Shown here: positions 2,193 through 62,783 of the stretch, one piece after another
Position numbering within the stretch: the stretch's first letter is position 1
How the letters are laid out: every line of letters starts with the position of its first letter
NCBI GenBank assembly: GCA_023898465.1
Contig: CP060223.1
Location: 128,001-192,000 of the forward strand
Direction: 5' to 3'
DNA from: Candidatus Nomurabacteria bacterium
GTDB taxonomy: Bacteria > Patescibacteriota > Patescibacteriia > HK-STAS-PATE-3
Length of the DNA: 64,000 nt
The notes under the pieces: generated by a model
Database searches by the model: none
What the model saw: the letters and a program-made list of their open reading frames with translations, nothing else
Told to the model about the DNA's origin: nothing
Made by a program: the position numbers and the translations under genes

Positions 2193-2314
2193 GCTTGCCT
2201 CACTATAGGTATCTTGCTAGGCTCTAGATACCGTTCTTTCGTATTGAGTGATGATCAGCTCAGATTCTGGCTTTCTTCCCCGAGCCGTTCAGAGTCAGCT
2301 TATCATTACTCATA

Positions 2315-2387
2315 CCGCGCAGTCTCAACTTGCACCTCCTCATGCGGCTCCCGCCCATGTCGCAAGAACCAGACTGCGCGGTTTTTT
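2315..2387 (+). repeat. GC-rich long hairpin element A (CCGCGCAGTCT ... AGACTGCGCGG + T6)
   Basis: Perfect 11 nt inverted repeat flanking a roughly 45 nt partly self-complementary interior, followed by TTTTTT. Confidence 0.5.
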
Positions 2388-2627
2388 CATACACCAAAGA
2401 AGAAGAGGCGGCTGAATCTAGGAGATCCAGCCGCCGAGAGAAGCTCGCACAGATCTGCGCGAGCGCCATTGTTCCCCGTACGTAGGGGAGTTAGGCGCTA
2501 TTGCAGAACCGACGAGCCAGTTTCGGGATCTTCATCGTGCGTCTCCTTGTGGATTGCATCGAGTCTTGTCCCTCGCTTTTGTTCAGAGAACGCAAGCGGT
2601 AGTGCCTAAGGTACACTGCATAAAAGT

Positions 2628-2670
2628 AGGTGTCAAGTGTGGGTGTGTTTCTTGACTACACCTCTTTTTT
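2628..2670 (+). terminator. Rho-independent terminator-like hairpin
   Basis: AGGTGTCAAG-(13 nt loop)-CTTGACTACACCT followed by CTTTTTT. It lies in the GC-rich spacer downstream of the ABC transporter. Confidence 0.45.
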
Positions 2671-2702
2671 CAACTAGAGTAGCACAGCACATTAATCAAC
2701 GT

Positions 2703-2771
2703 GGGACTGCGTCATGGTGGAACGGGTGTTGAGTCCACTGCCGCCAGCTCAGCGCCTTGTTACGCAGTCCC
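2703..2771 (+). repeat. GC-rich long hairpin element (GGGACTGCGT ... ACGCAGTCCC)
   Basis: 10 nt perfect inverted repeat enclosing about 49 nt. It shares the GACTGCG/CGCAGTC core with elements A and B, in the opposite arm order. Confidence 0.5.
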
Positions 2772-2783
2772 ACCCCTTTCCCG

Positions 2784-2850
2784 CCGCGCAGCTTGTTGTG
2801 AGTCTACCTACCGACACGCTCCTTAGACTCATGACACTGCGCGGCTTTTT
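2784..2850 (+). repeat. GC-rich long hairpin element B (CCGCGCAG ... CTGCGCGG + T5)
   Basis: 8 nt perfect inverted repeat with the same arm sequence as element A, flanking about 45 nt that includes the inner palindrome GAGTCTA/TAGACTC, followed by CTTTTT. Confidence 0.5.
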
Positions 2851-2907
2851 CTTTTCCACTTGAATTATTGCGTCGGAGTGCTATACCAAAAGAGTTAGGA
2901 AAACATT

Positions 2908-3975
2908 ATGCGCCAAGTACTACTTCTCCTCACTTTGATTTTATTATGTACAGGAGGATTGTATCTAGCGAATACTGCGCAAGCCCAGGAAAAGCCCGAG
3001 CTGTTGTTTTTTTACGGCCAAGGTTGTCCGCACTGCGCTGTAGTTGAGCAATATATTGAGGATGAAAATCTTGACGAGCGTTTTCGTATTATAGCGAAAG
3101 AGGTGTATGGAGACCCGGAAAATGCTCGCGACCTTACCCAGCAGTTTCAAGTTTTTCACGTGCCAGAGTCAAAGCAAGGAGTTCCCTTTATGGTGCTTGG
3201 GGCTAAATATTATGTTGGGGACGTGTATATTATTGAGGCAATAGAAAACTATGCGGATTCGGAAATTATTCATACCGAAGCGCCGAATGTTGCTGAAGAG
3301 CAAGGAGACGATCAGCTTCATTTTTTTCCGGTAGTTGGCGCCGCCTTGGTTGATGCTATCAATCCATGCGCTTTTGCTGTTCTGATTATTCTTATGGCTA
3401 CAGTGATTGCCTCGCAAGACAGGCGACGAGCCTTGCTGGCTGGCTTAAGTTTTTCTTTCGCTATATTCCTTTCATATTTGGCAATGGGCTTTGGTCTGTA
3501 TTCAGCAATTGCCGCAGCCAGTGCGACGACTTGGGTCACAAAGCTGGCCGCCGGGATGGCAATCTTGCTCGGGTTATTCAATCTCAAAGATGCGCTTTGG
3601 TATGGAAAAGGTGTGTTGATGGAAGTGCCAATGTCATGGCGACCTCGGATGAAAAAATTAATTCGCTCAGTCACGCATCCGCTGAGCGCCTTTGGAGCAG
3701 GCATTTTGGTAAGCTTATTTCTCTTACCCTGCACCTCTGGTCCCTACATTGTTATTATTGGTATGTTGAGCTCTACGGAATCAATAAACGCGGCAGTCCT
3801 TTGGTTGATACTCTACAATGTTATTTTTATCTTACCGATGTTGGGATTAACCTTAGCAGTATATTTCGGATTACAACCGAGTCGGCTTGAAGAAATACGG
3901 CAAAGTCGCCTGCGCCTACTTCATGCCATTGCCGGAATCATTTTACTAAGCTTAGGTTTGTATTTGTTGTTGTAG
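2908..3975 (+). CDS. thiol:disulfide interchange membrane protein (DsbD/CcdA-like) with N-terminal thioredoxin-like domain
   Basis: 355 aa. A signal/TM segment is followed by the CxxC motif GQGCPHCAV (thioredoxin-like). A multi-TM domain follows with the CcdA/DsbD-type conserved cysteines (INPCAF ... LPCTSGP). Confidence 0.7.
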   Translation: MRQVLLLLTLILLCTGGLYLANTAQAQEKPELLFFYGQGCPHCAVVEQYIEDENLDERFRIIAKEVYGDPENARDLTQQFQVFHVPESKQGVPFMVLGAKYYVGDVYIIEAIENYADSEIIHTEAPNVAEEQGDDQLHFFPVVGAALVDAINPCAFAVLIILMATVIASQDRRRALLAGLSFSFAIFLSYLAMGFGLYSAIAAASATTWVTKLAAGMAILLGLFNLKDALWYGKGVLMEVPMSWRPRMKKLIRSVTHPLSAFGAGILVSLFLLPCTSGPYIVIIGMLSSTESINAAVLWLILYNVIFILPMLGLTLAVYFGLQPSRLEEIRQSRLRLLHAIAGIILLSLGLYLLL

Positions 3976-4023
3976 ATAAACCAAAACCGACCTGAGCGGC
4001 CGGCTTTAGTTTTGACGCGAGAC

Positions 4024-4212
4024 TTAGTAGAGCCCAGCCAAATGGAGCAGGAGGATGAAGACTCCGATAGAGATCAGAAAGAGTCCGAGCCCCGTGGCTG
4101 ATCCCCAACTGTACCAGGAGCCCCAGGCGCGCCAGGGGAGTTGCGGGTAAGCCTCTCGGTAGCGCTTCCAGTCCTCGAGTTGCTCTTCTTGTTTTTTATC
4201 CATAGTTGCCAA
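4024..4212 (-). CDS. small hypothetical membrane protein (62 aa)
   Basis: Minus-strand ORF in an otherwise empty 420 nt gap. It has a charged N-terminus (MDKKQEEQLEDWKRYRE), a Trp-rich segment and a C-terminal TM helix (LGLFLISIGVFILLLHLAGLY). There is no homology evidence. Confidence 0.3.
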   Translation of the reverse strand: MATMDKKQEEQLEDWKRYREAYPQLPWRAWGSWYSWGSATGLGLFLISIGVFILLLHLAGLY

Positions 4213-4393
4213 TGTTTGCTTGATAAGTCGACCTTTGGCAACCCATCTGTGCGGAATGATGTGCCCGTCTGTATGTTCAGGGTTGGAGAACGCGGGCGTG
4301 GTGTCAGTTCGCGCATTCGGAGTATAGCGGATGGCAATATTCTGTCAAAAAAGGATAGTAGCGCAGAAGGGGAAATAAGGCTATGCTTCAATC

Positions 4394-5086
4394 ATGAGCT
4401 ACTATGCTGAGCAAAAAAAGGCTTTTGAAAGGGTAGAAAATGCTGTAAAAAAAGGAAAGGCAGAAGGATCGGTAGTTGACCCGGTACAAGACTATGTTCA
4501 GGATAAGCGCTTATCGCTTACGAGCTTGAGTTTTTTGCCTCCGGCAGTGCAGCAAAAAATCTATCATACACTCATTATTCCGCTTCAGGTGGTAGACTCG
4601 CAGCAGGCGTATTTTGAAGCACGTAGTCTCCATGTCACGGTGCAAAATATTCGGACAGTCGCTGATCCGCCTCTGTATACTTCAGCTGACATAGAAAAAG
4701 CACGCGAGATATTTCATAACATAGTTCCTAAATACCCATTGCTAAAATGTCGACTTGAAGGTTTAAATATCTTTCCTGCAAGCGTTGCGATCCGTGCATT
4801 CGTGAGCGAGGAGTTTCGGGATCTGGTGCTTGAGCTGCGCGAAGCTCTACGACGTAATGGTGTGCCAGATAATAAAGTGTATGCTTCTGGAAATGTTATT
4901 TTTGGTAATGTTACTTTTGTTCGTTTTACGACTACTCCTAACAAGGATTTTTTTGCCAAAGTCGAGGAGTTAAAAGAGTGTTCATTTGGCGAAGTGCATT
5001 TAGAAAAAGTTTCCCTCATGGAGGTCAATGCGCTGTGTCATCCGAGCAGTATGCGGGTCATTGATACTTATTCTTTCCAGAAATAA
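4394..5086 (+). CDS. hypothetical protein, possibly 2H phosphoesterase (LigT/ThpR)-like
   Basis: 230 aa ORF with ATG start. It contains one H-x-T-x motif (SLHVTVQN). A possible degenerate second motif is NVTF, with Asn in place of His. The family assignment is tentative. Confidence 0.45.
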   Translation: MSYYAEQKKAFERVENAVKKGKAEGSVVDPVQDYVQDKRLSLTSLSFLPPAVQQKIYHTLIIPLQVVDSQQAYFEARSLHVTVQNIRTVADPPLYTSADIEKAREIFHNIVPKYPLLKCRLEGLNIFPASVAIRAFVSEEFRDLVLELREALRRNGVPDNKVYASGNVIFGNVTFVRFTTTPNKDFFAKVEELKECSFGEVHLEKVSLMEVNALCHPSSMRVIDTYSFQK

Positions 5087-5090
5087 ATAC

Positions 5091-5624
5091 ATGCTATATA
5101 TCACATACTTTGTTCATGGCACCACAACTGACAATGAGCATGATCTTTGTATGGGTTGGGCGCCGGGTCAACTGTCTGAATTAGGGAAGCGGCAAGCAAA
5201 AGATCTTGGAGAGCAGGTTGACGCGTCACAGTTTGCAGTCATGTTTTGTTCTGATTTGCAACGGGCAGTTGATTCAGCTGAGCTAGGTTTTGGAGGGATG
5301 TTGAAGATAATTCAAGATCAGCGTTTGCGTGAATGCAACTATGGTGACTTAACACAGAGGTCTGAGGATCTTGTGGACTACGCCAAGCATATTGCAGAAC
5401 CATTTCCAAATGGTGAGAGCTTACATGACGTTGAGCAGCGGATGCGGGAATTTTTAGAAATGCTTAACACTGGCTATGCAGATAAACATGTGGCCCTTAT
5501 GGCCCACAAGGCACCTCAACTTGCGCTCGAAGTGCTCCTGAATGGAAAAACGTGGGAGCAAGCGATTACGGAAGACTGGCGTAAAAAGAAAGCTTGGCAA
5601 CCGGGGTGGAGCTATTTGTTTTAG
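5091..5624 (+). CDS. histidine phosphatase family protein (phosphoglycerate mutase-like)
   Basis: N-terminus MLYITYFVHGTTTDNE matches the RHG-type catalytic motif of the PGAM/histidine phosphatase superfamily. The start was moved from the 5028 ORF start to the ATG at 5091 because 5028..5086 overlaps the upstream gene. Length about 177 aa. Confidence 0.65.
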   Translation: MLYITYFVHGTTTDNEHDLCMGWAPGQLSELGKRQAKDLGEQVDASQFAVMFCSDLQRAVDSAELGFGGMLKIIQDQRLRECNYGDLTQRSEDLVDYAKHIAEPFPNGESLHDVEQRMREFLEMLNTGYADKHVALMAHKAPQLALEVLLNGKTWEQAITEDWRKKKAWQPGWSYLF

Positions 5625-18613: not shown

Positions 18614-21600
18614 ATGAGTATGAAAAACGTTGTACCGGAAGGGGAATACAACCCAGCAAGTATTGAAGCAAAATGGCAGGAGCACTGGAACAAAAAACCA
18701 GATCAGGCTAAGGATTTTGCGCATGATCCAAAGCGCTATCTTCTCATTGAATTTCCTTACCCCTCAGGTGATGGACTGCATGTGGGGCATGTGCGAAGCT
18801 ATGCCGCTCTCGATGTGTTGGCGCGTTATTCTCGCTTAAAGGGTTTTAATGTGCTTTACCCCATCGGCTGGGATGCTTTTGGTTTACCCACCGAGAATTA
18901 TGCGATTAAGACTGGCGTACACCCACGTGTTGCGACTGATAAGAATATTGCCACCTTTCGCCGCCAGCTTAAGGCGCTAGGCCTTTCATTTGATTGGTCT
19001 CGAGAAGTGGATACAACAGATCCAAAATACTATCGATGGACACAGTGGATTTTTTTGCAGTTCTATAAGGCAGGCTTAGCCTATCAGGCAGAGATTCCTA
19101 TTAACTGGTGTCCAAAAGATAAAATCGGTTTGGCCAATGAAGAAGTGGTTGATGGCAAATGCGAACGCTGCGGCACTGAAGTAACGCGTAAAATGCAAAA
19201 GCAGTGGATGTTAAAAATCACCGCCTATGCAGATCGCTTACTACGTGATCTCGATACAGTTGAGTACGTTGAAAAAATTAAAACACAGCAGAAAAACTGG
19301 ATAGGTAAGAGCGAGGGTGCTGAAATATCTTTTCAAATAGCTAGTAAGGAGTCGCAAAAACCTCGCTTCGTACTTCTCCATGGTTTTCAGGGCTCAGCTA
19401 AAGGTAACTTTTTCCCATGGCTAAAAGATGAGTTGGTCGCAAAGGGCTATGAGGTGGAAGTACCTGAATTACCAAACAGCGCTCATCCGACTGAAGAGGA
19501 ACAGGTAAGTTATGTACTTGAACATTGTCGCTTTGATGAAAACACCATCGTGTTTGGTCATTCGCTTGGTACAGTCGTGGCCATGAAGGTTATAGAAAAG
19601 CTTCCCACAAAAGTAGCTGGCTTGGTTATGGCCGGTGGATTTACCCAGGCTGATTTTTCTGATCACGATCGACCATTCCGCGATACCTTTACATGGAATT
19701 TTGATTTCCAGGCGATTCGAGATAAAGCAGGTTTTATAAAAGTGCTACATGACGTGCATGATGATGCCGTGCCCGAGGGAGCTGGAGAGGCTTTAGCAAA
19801 AGCGCTCGAAGTGCCGTGCTACAAGGTGACCGCAAATGAAGAGCATTTCTGCGCAAAGCAAGAGCCTTATCTATTAGCGCATCTCATGCCAAACACACTT
19901 TTGGTTGGTACGCAAAATCAGGCAAAGGTGGAAATGCTTCGACGAGCATTGGCCCCTTACCCAAATATTCACCTCATCAGTTTAAGTGATATTGGTAAGG
20001 TCGATGATCAGGCTTTAGTAGAGGGCGATGACTTTCGTGCTAATGCAAAAATGAAAGCAGATTTTTATCACCGAGCCACAGGTTTACCAACCATATCGAC
20101 GGATCATATTCTTTGGATAGAGAAATGGCCTGAGGATAATGGCTTCATTACGCATATTCGCAAATTAGCAAATCCGAAATCTGGACGAGCAACAGATGAA
20201 GAACTAGCAGAATGGATAAAAAAATTTATCGATAAAAATGGTGAGTCGCGTACAGCCTTTCATTATGCTATTGGTTATGCCGATGAGAAGGGAGTGCAGG
20301 GCTTTGTGAGTATTCAGCGCGAATACATGTTGAAGGCTAATCCGGCTAAAGCACGATGGGAAGGCTATGCGGTCGGTGCATTTTTGCGTGACCCCGTGAC
20401 TGATGCGTATCGAGAAGAGATGCCCGCAGAGATCGCTTTTGATCGCTTCTTCGCCACAGTGCGCAATGAAATTGTGCCGCAGGTTTTCGATATGAGCACC
20501 TTGACGGTCTTTACCACACGACCCGATACCATCTTCGGTGTCACGTATATGGTTGTAGCCCCTGAACATGAACTCCTTGCCAAGTATCAATCACACATTA
20601 CAAATTGGGATGAAGTTCAAAAGTATGTGCGAGAGGCCGCCAAGAAATCCGATATGGAGCGGACCGAGTTGGCCAAAGAAAAAAGTGGCGTTGAGCTCAA
20701 AGGTATTCAGGCAGTAAATCCGGCAAATGGTGAAGTAATCCCGATTTGGGTAGCTGACTATGTGCTGAGTTCTTATGGCACCGGAGCGATAATGGCTGTG
20801 CCGGCGCATGATCAGCGAGACAATGAGTTTGCAAAAAAGTACTCCCTGCAAATAAGAGAAGTAGTAAGAGGTTTTAATCGTGTAGGAGAGAAAAAAGATA
20901 TTGTATATTCTGGCGAGGGGGTCCTAGTAAATTCTCAGGACTTTGATGGAGAAAAAAGCGAAGACGCAAAAAAGAACATTGTAAGGTGGTTAGAAGAAAA
21001 AGGACTCGGTCATTCAGCAGTCAATTTTAAACTTCGCGACTGGGTATTTTCACGTCAGCACTACTGGGGCGAGCCGATTCCGATTATTCATTGTCCTAAG
21101 TGCGGAGCTGTTCCAGTGCCGGAGAAAGACCTACCAGTGGAATTGCCTCATGTAGAAAAATACCAACCCACTAATACTGGGGCTTCACCATTAGCTGCGA
21201 TCGAGGATTGGGTGCAGGTGAAATGTCCGAAGTGTAAGGGCGAAGCGAGTCGAGAAACCGACACCATGCCGAATTGGGCCGGGAGCTCGTGGTATTTCCT
21301 GCGCTATTCGGATCCGCACAATAGTAAAGCCTTTGCTGATAAGAAAAAGCTAGAGTATTGGCTGCCGGTGGATATTTACAATGGTGGCAATGAGCACACC
21401 ACCCTCCATTTACTCTACTCGCGTTTCTGGCATAAGTTTTTATTTGATCAGGGCTTGGTACCAACTCCAGAACCATACCAGCATCGTCATTCGCATGGGA
21501 TTGTGTTAGCTGAGGATAATCGCAAGATGTCAAAGAGTTGGGGGAACGTGGTCAATCCGGATGATTATGTGCAGGAGTACGGTGCAGATAGCGTGCGCAT

Positions 21601-22198
21601 GTACGAGTTATTTATGGGACCATTTGAGGATATGATTCCGTGGTCAACCAAGGGTATCGTGGGTGTGCATCGCTTCTTAAATCGTGTGTGGGAACTTTAT
21701 CGTAAAGTTACAGAAGAGACGGCCCAAGTAACAGAAGAGAGGGACATTCACAAAGCTGTGAAAAAGGTTGGGGAAGACCTCGAGGCTTTTCGTTTCAACA
21801 CCGCGGTGAGCACTTTGATGGAATATTTTAATCACTTCCGTGATGAAGTGCAGCAGGGTAGGCTCGATAAAGAAGCAGCAGAAAAGTTTCTCGTGATCCT
21901 TTTCCCATTTGCGCCGCACCTTGCCTCAGAGCTCTGGGAGCAGTTAGGAAAGAAGAGCGATATTCGCGAACAATCATGGCCAAACTTTGATCCAAACGCT
22001 TTACAAGCGGAGACCGTCACGATCGGTGTGCAGATTAATGGCAAAGTGCGCGCCTCCATAAGCCTTTCACCAGAAGCAAGCGAAGCAGAAGCGCTGGAGC
22101 TAGCCTTAGCCGAAGAAAATATTCAACGCTATCTTCAAAAGGGACAGCCCAAGAAGGTTATTTATCGTGCAGGAAAAATTCTCAATCTGATCGCCTGA
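18614..22198 (+). CDS. leuS: leucine--tRNA ligase with large inserted hydrolase/Ham1-like module
   Basis: HIGH motif (HVGHVRSY) and KMSKS motif present. The Zn-binding CxxC..CxxC insertion, the CP1 editing-domain core (FTTRPDT...AVPAHDQRD) and an anticodon-binding C-terminus are all recognisable. At 1194 aa it is about 330 aa longer than typical bacterial LeuRS because of an insertion between EISFQ and TVFTTRPDT. Confidence 0.9.
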   Translation: MSMKNVVPEGEYNPASIEAKWQEHWNKKPDQAKDFAHDPKRYLLIEFPYPSGDGLHVGHVRSYAALDVLARYSRLKGFNVLYPIGWDAFGLPTENYAIKTGVHPRVATDKNIATFRRQLKALGLSFDWSREVDTTDPKYYRWTQWIFLQFYKAGLAYQAEIPINWCPKDKIGLANEEVVDGKCERCGTEVTRKMQKQWMLKITAYADRLLRDLDTVEYVEKIKTQQKNWIGKSEGAEISFQIASKESQKPRFVLLHGFQGSAKGNFFPWLKDELVAKGYEVEVPELPNSAHPTEEEQVSYVLEHCRFDENTIVFGHSLGTVVAMKVIEKLPTKVAGLVMAGGFTQADFSDHDRPFRDTFTWNFDFQAIRDKAGFIKVLHDVHDDAVPEGAGEALAKALEVPCYKVTANEEHFCAKQEPYLLAHLMPNTLLVGTQNQAKVEMLRRALAPYPNIHLISLSDIGKVDDQALVEGDDFRANAKMKADFYHRATGLPTISTDHILWIEKWPEDNGFITHIRKLANPKSGRATDEELAEWIKKFIDKNGESRTAFHYAIGYADEKGVQGFVSIQREYMLKANPAKARWEGYAVGAFLRDPVTDAYREEMPAEIAFDRFFATVRNEIVPQVFDMSTLTVFTTRPDTIFGVTYMVVAPEHELLAKYQSHITNWDEVQKYVREAAKKSDMERTELAKEKSGVELKGIQAVNPANGEVIPIWVADYVLSSYGTGAIMAVPAHDQRDNEFAKKYSLQIREVVRGFNRVGEKKDIVYSGEGVLVNSQDFDGEKSEDAKKNIVRWLEEKGLGHSAVNFKLRDWVFSRQHYWGEPIPIIHCPKCGAVPVPEKDLPVELPHVEKYQPTNTGASPLAAIEDWVQVKCPKCKGEASRETDTMPNWAGSSWYFLRYSDPHNSKAFADKKKLEYWLPVDIYNGGNEHTTLHLLYSRFWHKFLFDQGLVPTPEPYQHRHSHGIVLAEDNRKMSKSWGNVVNPDDYVQEYGADSVRMYELFMGPFEDMIPWSTKGIVGVHRFLNRVWELYRKVTEETAQVTEERDIHKAVKKVGEDLEAFRFNTAVSTLMEYFNHFRDEVQQGRLDKEAAEKFLVILFPFAPHLASELWEQLGKKSDIREQSWPNFDPNALQAETVTIGVQINGKVRASISLSPEASEAEALELALAEENIQRYLQKGQPKKVIYRAGKILNLIA

Positions 22199-62043: not shown

Positions 62044-62120
62044 TGGTGCGCCCGGCAGGGATCGAACCTACGACCTCAGGCTCCGCAAGCCTGCGCTCTA
62101 TCCAACTGAGCTACGGGCGC
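62044..62120 (-). tRNA. tRNA-Arg (anticodon reads GCG)
   Basis: Reverse complement: GCGCCCGTAGCTCAGTTGGATAGAGCGCAGGCTTGCGGAGCCTGAGGTCGTAGGTTCGATCCCTGCCGGGCGCACCA. It folds as a cloverleaf: 7 bp acceptor stem, D-loop with A20, anticodon stem CAGGC/GCCTG with loop TTGCGGA, T-arm GTAGG-TTCGATC-CCTGC, and an encoded CCA. It is close to E. coli tRNA-Arg(ACG) apart from G34. Confidence 0.85.
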
Positions 62121-62297
62121 ATATATAATGCGTTAGATTTTAATATTGTCATCGAGATGGCCGAGGGGCCAACTGCCCGCTCGCCATCGCTTGCGCTTAG
62201 GCGCATGCGGGCGAGAGCTACGGGCGCGTATTCACGCGTAGAGATGACTATATTGAGTCGTTGCGGTAACGACCCTCGGGACTTTAGCGTATCTGCA

Positions 62298-62783
62298 CTA
62301 GAGTTTCAAGAGGCGACTAAGTGCCTCCGAAGTAGTCTCATCTTCTCGTTCTAAATCTTCCTCTAAATGCTCGAGAAGTACCTTACGGACCTCAATAGGA
62401 TTTTCGTCCTCCAAAGGGATAACGAGCATAGGTCGGAAGGTGCTTTTAAAAGGCACGTAGAGCTTTTTTACCTCTGGTGGACGATAAGCAATCCAGAAGT
62501 TTTTTAACGCTTCATATTCAAAAAAGTCGTTTCCAATATGCAGACCATCCTCGGTAATATCGATGGTGACATCTTGTGGCCTACGTCGATTTTGCAGTAC
62601 AAGTATGACCGCAATGATAATGAGGATGATGGCGAAGAGGAAATTAAATGTCAGCATGGCAAACAAGAATGACAGCGCGCCAATCACGCCAACAATCATA
62701 TACCATCGTCGGCTACGGTTATGTTGGACGTAGTCAGGGAAGTGCCAAGTGGCTAGGACTTCACCGTATTCACTGTCGGCCAT
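62298..62783 (-). CDS. hypothetical membrane protein (162 aa)
   Basis: The ORF 62298..62882 overlaps tRNA-Ser at its 5' end. The start was moved to the internal ATG at 62781..62783 (MADSEYGEV...). One TM hairpin (YMIVGVIGALSFLFAMLTFNFLFAIILIIIAVILVL) and an acidic C-terminus. Confidence 0.5.
   Translation of the reverse strand: MADSEYGEVLATWHFPDYVQHNRSRRWYMIVGVIGALSFLFAMLTFNFLFAIILIIIAVILVLQNRRRPQDVTIDITEDGLHIGNDFFEYEALKNFWIAYRPPEVKKLYVPFKSTFRPMLVIPLEDENPIEVRKVLLEHLEEDLEREDETTSEALSRLLKL

Follow-up and report, generated by a model that had tools for sequence, protein, structure and literature searches.

Here we describe a long non-coding spacer, and the hairpins within it, in a Candidatus Nomurabacteria bacterium (Patescibacteriota; metagenome-assembled genome, GenBank assembly GCA_023898465.1, contig CP060223.1, positions 128,001 to 192,000). 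This 64,000-nt stretch is referred to below as the window, and positions are numbered from its first nucleotide. The spacer separates a gene for an ABC exporter (447-2192) from a CcdA/DsbD-like gene (2908-3975; here ccdA), whose product is 100% identical to an NCBI protein (locus tag H6760_00570). Genes are tightly packed in the window, with the majority of gaps shorter than 100 nt, and at 715 nt (2193-2907) the spacer is the longest intergenic gap; its description as unusually long, in an earlier note on this DNA, is thus correct. The same note called it GC-rich, and its G+C content is indeed raised, but only moderately (51.6% versus 45.7% for the window). Because the same sequence is present in three independent assemblies (L001-L003), an assembly artefact can be ruled out.

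The spacer is non-coding. The 131-amino-acid open reading frame (ORF) at 2214-2609, already suspected of being spurious, has a TTG start and belongs to no Pfam family, and it was not called by the gene callers in any of the three assemblies. A search among 5.8 billion proteins returned zero homologues, nor do those proteins include the predicted product of the ORF itself. Furthermore, a 1-nt indel in the three assemblies alters its last 19 residues. When the small ORFs of the spacer were listed, none resembled a peptide gene.

As RNA, the spacer folds with z-scores of -7.8 (plus strand) and -9.5 (minus strand). In a 120-nt sliding scan of the plus strand, the top 4 of 1065 scan windows all fell within the spacer (z from -7.8 to -6.0), ahead of the best tRNA region (z of -4.7). 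The spacer contains three perfect inverted repeats of 9 nt or more with a spacing of 30 to 70 nt, versus 10 in all of the other 63.3 kb (Poisson P of ~2e-4), and the two 12-nt arm pairs, those of the hairpins termed A and H below, are the only such pairs in the window.

The spacer contains four long hairpins, termed P, A, H and B, that resemble one another in geometry (Table 1). The last three lie where the earlier note had placed them, with T6 after A and T5 after B, and the interiors that it gave as ~45 to 50 nt and semistructured measure 45 (A), 49 (H) and 45 nt (B) and contain inner helices. Hairpin P, which adjoins A and is of the same size class, was missing from its list. Hairpin A is terminator-like, lies 122 nt 3′ of the ABC-transporter stop codon and leaves an ACCUCCU sequence unpaired in its interior. 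Hairpin H has the arms GTGGGACTGCGT/ACGCAGTCCCAC and a 14-bp inner stem, and no T-run follows it. Hairpin B, also terminator-like, has a 13-bp inner stem topped by a 17-nt loop with CUCCU.

Between P-A and H-B, the region 2400-2470 folds with a z of -4.6. In a terminator scan of the first 20 kb, the hairpin read from 2435 to 2407 ranked first among the terminator-like sites of the minus strand. The hairpin at 2628-2670, previously described as a canonical terminator, does not deserve the name: a T6 does follow it, but the hairpin itself is weak and the scan was silent. It is preceded by AAAAG, its arms carry -35-like TTGAC boxes on both strands, and it is a marginal terminator, possibly a bidirectional one. 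The sigma-70-like match that overlaps it would place a transcription start ~13 nt before hairpin H. It is also possible, judging from the letters, that ccdA (ATG at 2908) has its own weak promoter-like site at 2860-2887, which the scan did not flag.

Table 1. Features of the spacer between the ABC-exporter gene and ccdA (positions in the window)
Feature	Position	Strand	Basis
Non-coding spacer, ABC transporter/ccdA	2193-2907		Largest gap; fold z; no coding signal
Hairpin P, 75 nt, near-continuous, apical loop UCUUCCCC	2241-2315	+	Fold z -7.2
Hairpin A with T6 (2382-2387)	2314-2387	+	Arms 2314-2325/2371-2382, 12 bp, perfect; z -7.2
13-bp hairpin, then TCTTCTTCTT on the minus strand	2407-2435	-	Terminator-like; converges on hairpin A
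22-nt palindrome GCTCGCACAGATCTGCGCGAGC (hairpin)	2443-2464	-	Better fold on the minus strand
Middle segment, weakly structured	2465-2627		Fold z -0.8 and -1.2; small hairpins 2472-2490, 2573-2599, 2603-2615
Weak hairpin AGGTGT/ACACCT plus CAAG/CTTG, then T6 (2665-2670)	2628-2670	+	z -0.7; unflagged by terminator scan
Sigma-70-like match TTGACT - 17 nt - TAGAGT	2652-2680	+	9/12 positions matched
Hairpin H	2701-2773	+	12-bp perfect outer stem, arms 2701-2712/2762-2773; z -3.9
C-rich unpaired linker between H and B, CCCTTTCCC	2774-2782	+	Sequence and fold
Hairpin B with T5 (2846-2850)	2783-2850	+	Arms 2783-2791/2837-2845, 9 bp, perfect; z -7.6
Candidate ccdA promoter TTGAAT (2860-2865), 16-nt spacer, TATACC (2882-2887); ribosome-binding site AGGAA (2897-2901)	2860-2907	+	Read from sequence

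Several of these hairpins favor one strand. On the plus strand, hairpin P folds at -30.5 kcal/mol with three G-U pairs (versus -20.4 kcal/mol on the minus strand), H at -38.8 kcal/mol with four (versus -34.1), and B, which also contains G-U pairs, at -35.7 kcal/mol (versus -34.4). The G-U pairs and the better plus-strand fold of these three hairpins are a signature of plus-strand RNA. The hairpin at 2407-2435 and the palindrome at 2443-2464 lean the other way, with -23.9 versus -19.9 and -16.0 versus -12.5 kcal/mol, respectively, in favor of the minus strand. T-runs directly 3′ of A and B are found on the plus strand only. In addition, the C/U-rich pentamers CCTCC, CTCCT and TCCCC occur six times in the spacer versus ~1.1 expected from the window rate, and their complements twice versus ~1.9 expected. 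A G+C-rich stem followed immediately by a U-run, as in an intrinsic terminator, is present in both A (12 bp, T6) and B (9 bp, T5), so that a terminator function of the two is plausible from their sequence.

The arms could alternatively act as DNA, either as operators or other binding sites or as recombination sites, for example those of an invertible promoter segment that switches ccdA. The six ACTGCG-type sites do form three inverted pairs 51 to 58 bp apart, and the arm sequence is conserved whereas the interiors differ. Moreover, A and B have arms that are inverted repeats of one another across 402 nt (8 nt, 100%) and 504 nt (13 nt, 92%), and the segment thereby enclosed (2382-2783 or 2328-2831) contains the promoter-like site at 2652-2680, facing ccdA. 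The layout of an inverton, with inverted repeats flanking a promoter-bearing segment, is therefore present, albeit with repeats of 8 to 13 nt, which are short for such an element. However, the window has no gene for a recombinase or invertase, and a single orientation is seen in all four assemblies (the window and L001-L003). The complementarity also runs on through the interiors with G-U pairs, which is expected of RNA hairpins and not of protein-binding sites, and T-runs follow the arms. We consider a DNA-level element of this kind improbable.

How far A, H and B form a family is a separate question. The core that all three had been proposed to share, with H carrying it in the opposite arm order, shrinks on inspection to ACTGCG (6 nt). 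A and H have GACTGCG (7 nt) in common, and the H copy is indeed in the opposite arm, but the exact 8-mer GACTGCGC is, among the three, found in A only, and the interiors are unrelated. A and B share ACTGCGCGG (9 nt); both carry CCGCGCAG, CTTG and ACTGCGCGG(Y)TTTTTC, with nothing alike in their interiors. Their alignment has a z of 2.8, and 5 of 500 shuffles reached its score. Plausibly, A and B arose by duplication of a single terminator stem, and their interiors diverged afterwards. The relation of H to A and B is weak: neither P-H nor A-H similarity was significant, and the chance of the 7-mer being shared between H and A, estimated post hoc, is roughly 0.5 to 1%. Paralogy of the unit P-A with H-B was considered as well and was rejected as not significant (z of 1.9).

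Nor does the core recur elsewhere. The 8-mer GACTGCGC occurs three times in the window versus 1.6 expected, two of the three occurrences being in hairpin A, and no further copies of the hairpin core were found in the other 63 kb. A high-copy family, of at least 50 copies, is excluded at about P < 0.05, which leaves room for a low-copy one.

Beyond the window, the spacer sequence appears to be confined to one species-level lineage. Searches with nhmmer and blastn of 85 Patescibacteria loci (80 ABC-transporter and 5 CcdA loci, ~620 kb) and of the rest of the window found no homologue of the spacer, and blastn against phage and plasmid collections found no match. The nearest CcdA and ABC-transporter orthologues are 54 to 61% identical and mutually nonsyntenic, and the gap after the ABC gene is shorter than 150 nt in most orthologous loci. 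An exact look-up of the ABC-transporter protein returned no record. Scanning one genome per species for the hairpin pattern gave 97 matches; among the 88 listed, none was from Patescibacteria, and the source genome was not among them. Pattern scans of viral contigs gave chance-level, unrelated matches only.

Two kinds of palindrome came to light in these comparisons. In four orthologous ABC loci (L125, L120, L170 and L162), unrelated giant near-perfect palindromes lie within ~100 nt 3′ of the ABC stop codon, at 5757-5921 in L125 (with 49-bp perfect arms), ~3180-3330 in L120, 2577-2741 in L170 and 5854-5901 in L162. Lineage-specific palindromes thus recur after the ABC gene in Patescibacteria and are not homologous to the spacer. 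The palindrome arms in L143, L166 and L170 begin with GTCAT(C/T)(C/T)C, a hint at a distinct repeat family of wide occurrence. The pattern CCGCGCAG..CTGCGCGG followed by a T-run, in turn, was found at many loci in a few Acidobacteriota metagenome-assembled genomes (L017, L030, L033, L036, L040, L042, L045 and others); this element is palindromic, ~72 nt long and matched on both strands, and represents a repeat family in an unrelated phylum.

The only comparators for variation within the lineage were the three assemblies, which are ~99.7% identical to the window. Against these we counted 21 differences in 7.2 kb, 13 of them in the spacer, where they cluster at 2550-2593 and in the loop of hairpin B. 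The middle segment (2465-2627) holds seven of the 13 (A2468G and six within 2550-2593), and the hairpin B loop differs between strains by a 2-nt indel and two substitutions. The strong stems are unaltered save for C2309T, which turns a G-C pair of P into G-U, and T2824A, which opens the top pair of the inner stem of B. A further change, T2573C, replaces U-G by C-G in a small hairpin of the middle segment. As exchanges between G-C and G-U, C2309T and T2573C keep the pairing in plus-strand RNA only.

The eight differences outside the spacer, scored against L001/L002, fall in two patches of the ABC-transporter gene (634-676 and 1985-2037), and there are none in the 4.3 kb downstream of the spacer. 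This patchiness suggests recombination tracts or local differences in assembly or polishing, not uniform divergence.

These observations bear on the alternative that the hairpins are selfish or decaying palindromic DNA of low copy number (REP/BIME- or MITE-like, or left over from a mobile element or gene since lost) gathered in one tolerant intergenic site, with any terminator activity incidental. As in REP/BIME and MITE clusters, short arms recur in alternating orientation within one intergenic region and can form hairpins. The lack of the spacer at the orthologous loci of relatives implies an insertion or expansion in this lineage, the spacer is a hot spot of strain variation, and other Patescibacteria carry the unrelated palindromes described above at the same position. 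Unlike such elements, though, the arms are not themselves palindromic units, they show no dispersal in the 64 kb, the interiors are unrelated, and no target-site duplication flanks the arms; nor is any transposase, RAYT or integrase encoded in the window. The G-U asymmetry, moreover, points to selection on one RNA strand rather than to a DNA palindrome. The proliferating REP/MITE-like family once suggested for these hairpins finds no support in the 64 kb, and we regard the low-copy version as unlikely, if still deserving of serious consideration.

Comparison with known RNA families was uniformly negative. The proposal that the spacer might encode tmRNA, RNase P RNA or 6S RNA was not borne out: Rfam 15 at the gathering threshold gave no match in the spacer to these or to SRP RNA, group I introns or riboswitches, and ARAGORN in default, intron and tmRNA modes found no tRNA, intron-containing tRNA or tmRNA there. 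At E of ≤10, Rfam returned four noise matches only (12 to 17 bits versus thresholds of 36 to 61; E of ≥1.6), three of them to C/D-box snoRNAs and the fourth to an intron domain of plastids. Lowering the ARAGORN threshold produced artefacts only; one of these, a “permuted tmRNA” whose tag would read VGVKCGCVS, lies on the 2628 hairpin. Group I introns hidden in tRNA genes occur in Patescibacteria (PMC13011429); this candidate was rejected for the spacer, which has no tRNA halves and matches no intron model. An integron attC site was likewise rejected on reading the arms, as the A-side TCTCAAC is not RYYYAAC and has no GTTRRRY partner, and no integrase lies nearby.

Given that stem-loop tigRNA arrays have been described in bacteria that belong to the candidate phyla radiation (CPR) (PMC12045711; bioRxiv 10.64898/2026.09.09.750476), we also asked whether the hairpins might be guide-RNA units of an array like those of the TIGR-Tas systems of CPR bacteria and phages. 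The resemblance lies in four tandem hairpins of uniform size with palindromic stems and 45- to 49-nt interiors, some with an inner hairpin, in a CPR genome; the C/D-box snoRNAs among the Rfam noise matches point the same way. The published rule (bioRxiv 10.64898/2026.09.09.750476) calls for two intervals of box C (CNA), a spacer of ~9 nt and box D (YG) inside each stem. In a relaxed form, with spacers of 8 to 12 nt and a flanking stem of 6 bp or more, it gave 0 units on either strand versus a window background of 1.7 per 800 nt. The interiors are largely paired and so offer no free spacers, and the dual-spacer pattern of boxes C and D is missing. There are only four units, interrupted by ~310 nt. 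Within the 64 kb, Pfam detected neither a Nop-domain protein nor a Tas protein, and the unannotated neighbours bear no similarity to solved Nop or Tas structures. We therefore give this explanation almost no credence.

The reading that we favor is that the spacer holds lineage-specific RNA-level elements that match no known RNA or repeat family, namely extended terminator hairpins and, in addition, between one and three small RNAs or untranslated-region (UTR) modules. We put its probability at a little below even (about 0.45). Under this model, the ABC-transporter transcript would end in P, A and the T6, which would serve as its intrinsic terminator and give it a structured 3′ end; an RNA of ~150 to 190 nt might be set free from there. 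The weak sigma-70-like promoter at 2652-2680 would drive a second RNA of ~165 nt, made up of H, the C-rich linker and B with its T5, which might be a small RNA in its own right or else a terminated leader 5′ of ccdA. On the minus strand, a possible mid-spacer unit would end at ~2397, at the hairpin 2435-2407, and so converge on A. The long G+C-rich stems would serve to stop RNA polymerase and to protect 3′ ends, and the C/U-rich loops of P (UCUUCCCC), A (ACCUCCU) and B (CUCCU), together with the linker CCCUUUCCC, may pair with Shine-Dalgarno regions in the manner of C-rich regulatory small RNAs. Transcription, the transcript ends and any regulatory target are predictions from the DNA.

In this scheme the elements share features with intrinsic terminators and with 3′-UTR small RNAs that use the terminator of an mRNA: A and B have G+C-rich, perfect stems of 9 to 12 bp followed by T5 or T6, A lies downstream of a gene, and P stands in front of A. 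Unlike typical intrinsic terminators, which have loops of 3 to 8 nt, A and B enclose structured interiors of 45 nt; those terminators in the window that the scan did flag have short loops (e.g., 379-405). It is also unlike such terminators that two of them, A and B, should have the same stem sequence. RsaE/RoxS of Firmicutes are C-rich trans-acting small RNAs, and the candidate here resembles them in being a short, terminated, multihairpin RNA with C/U-rich, Shine-Dalgarno-complementary motifs in its loops and linkers. It differs in that the spacer has no sequence similarity and no Rfam similarity to them and no conservation beyond one species-level lineage.

A number of results weigh against the RNA-level reading. 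Hairpin A folds better on the minus strand, its interior slightly so, and its assignment to the plus strand consequently rests on the T-run. Promoter matches of the same 9/12 quality as that at 2652-2680 occur at background (34 versus 28.7 expected, 20 kb, shuffled). Neither A nor B has the compact short loop (3 to 8 nt) of a classical terminator, their interiors being 45 nt, and the terminator scan flagged neither. The concentration of strain differences in the spacer implies relaxed constraint in parts of it. Further, in a fold computed from the window only, 66% of positions are paired, and the substitutions hit such positions no more than by chance (6 of 10), with three breaking pairs; conservation of the structure is thus not demonstrated. 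Finally, there is no homologous sequence at the 80 orthologous ABC-transporter loci or the 5 CcdA loci, where gaps are mostly short.

We also considered, as one composite and quite improbable alternative, that the hairpins are processed units of a lineage-specific RNA system or an RNA/DNA switch controlling ccdA. In the former case, the ~70-nt hairpins, with outer stems of 9 to 15 bp and an ACUGCG motif at the stem base in three of them, might be recognized at this conserved stem base by a dedicated protein, and would be guide- or decoy-type RNAs of an effector so far unrecognized. In the latter, the shared arms might allow the local hairpins to alternate with long-range A-B or A-H pairings.

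Hardly anything has been explored of the non-coding RNAs of Patescibacteria (CPR), whose genomes are under strong pressure for small size. A retained block of 715 nt that out-folds tRNA genes is, in that setting, a good candidate for CPR regulatory RNAs or unusual terminators; should the hairpins turn out to be selfish palindromes or plain terminators, this would be an ordinary result.

Several other features of the window merit mention. The gap on the far side of ccdA (3976-4393, 418 nt) is not structured (z of -0.4 and -1.6). On its minus strand is a 62-amino-acid ORF (4024-4212) with a C-terminal hydrophobic helix that is uncalled in public assemblies. Upstream of the ORF lies the strongest promoter match in 20 kb (TTGACA - 16 nt - TATACT, 4348-4321), and downstream of it a minus-strand terminator (4001-3985); the ORF is probably a missed gene for a small membrane protein.

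Near the other end of the window, a very stable G+C-rich segment (62121-62300, minus strand) lies upstream of a tRNA-Arg gene (62044-62120). Its 120-nt scan window at 62161-62280 has a minimum free energy of -59.4 kcal/mol (z of -4.7) and matches no Rfam family. The segment holds a second copy of the 5′ end of the tRNA-Arg, GCGCCCGTAGCTC, ~100 nt upstream of the real gene. It might represent a leader element or a duplicated tRNA fragment.

Among the protein-coding genes, that for leucyl-tRNA synthetase (18614-22198, 1194 amino acids) contains an inserted alpha/beta-hydrolase domain at approximately residues 250 to 450. The region 25756-56990 encodes four giant proteins (1072 to 2046 amino acids) that bear Ig, fn3 and CBM domains and, after them, a type IV secretion-like cluster (PrgI, a TraG/VirB4-like ATPase, two type IV secretion system pilins and an SLT transglycosylase) and a DsbA-like thioredoxin. 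A TrbL/VirB6-like match is present in the last of the four giant proteins (1072 amino acids). Lastly, in the region 4394-5624 downstream of ccdA, a 230-amino-acid protein has weak similarity to the 2H/LigT-family protein PH0099 (1vdx, E = 0.018). Its gene overlaps the start of a histidine-phosphatase gene, and the two may form an RNA-end-processing pair.

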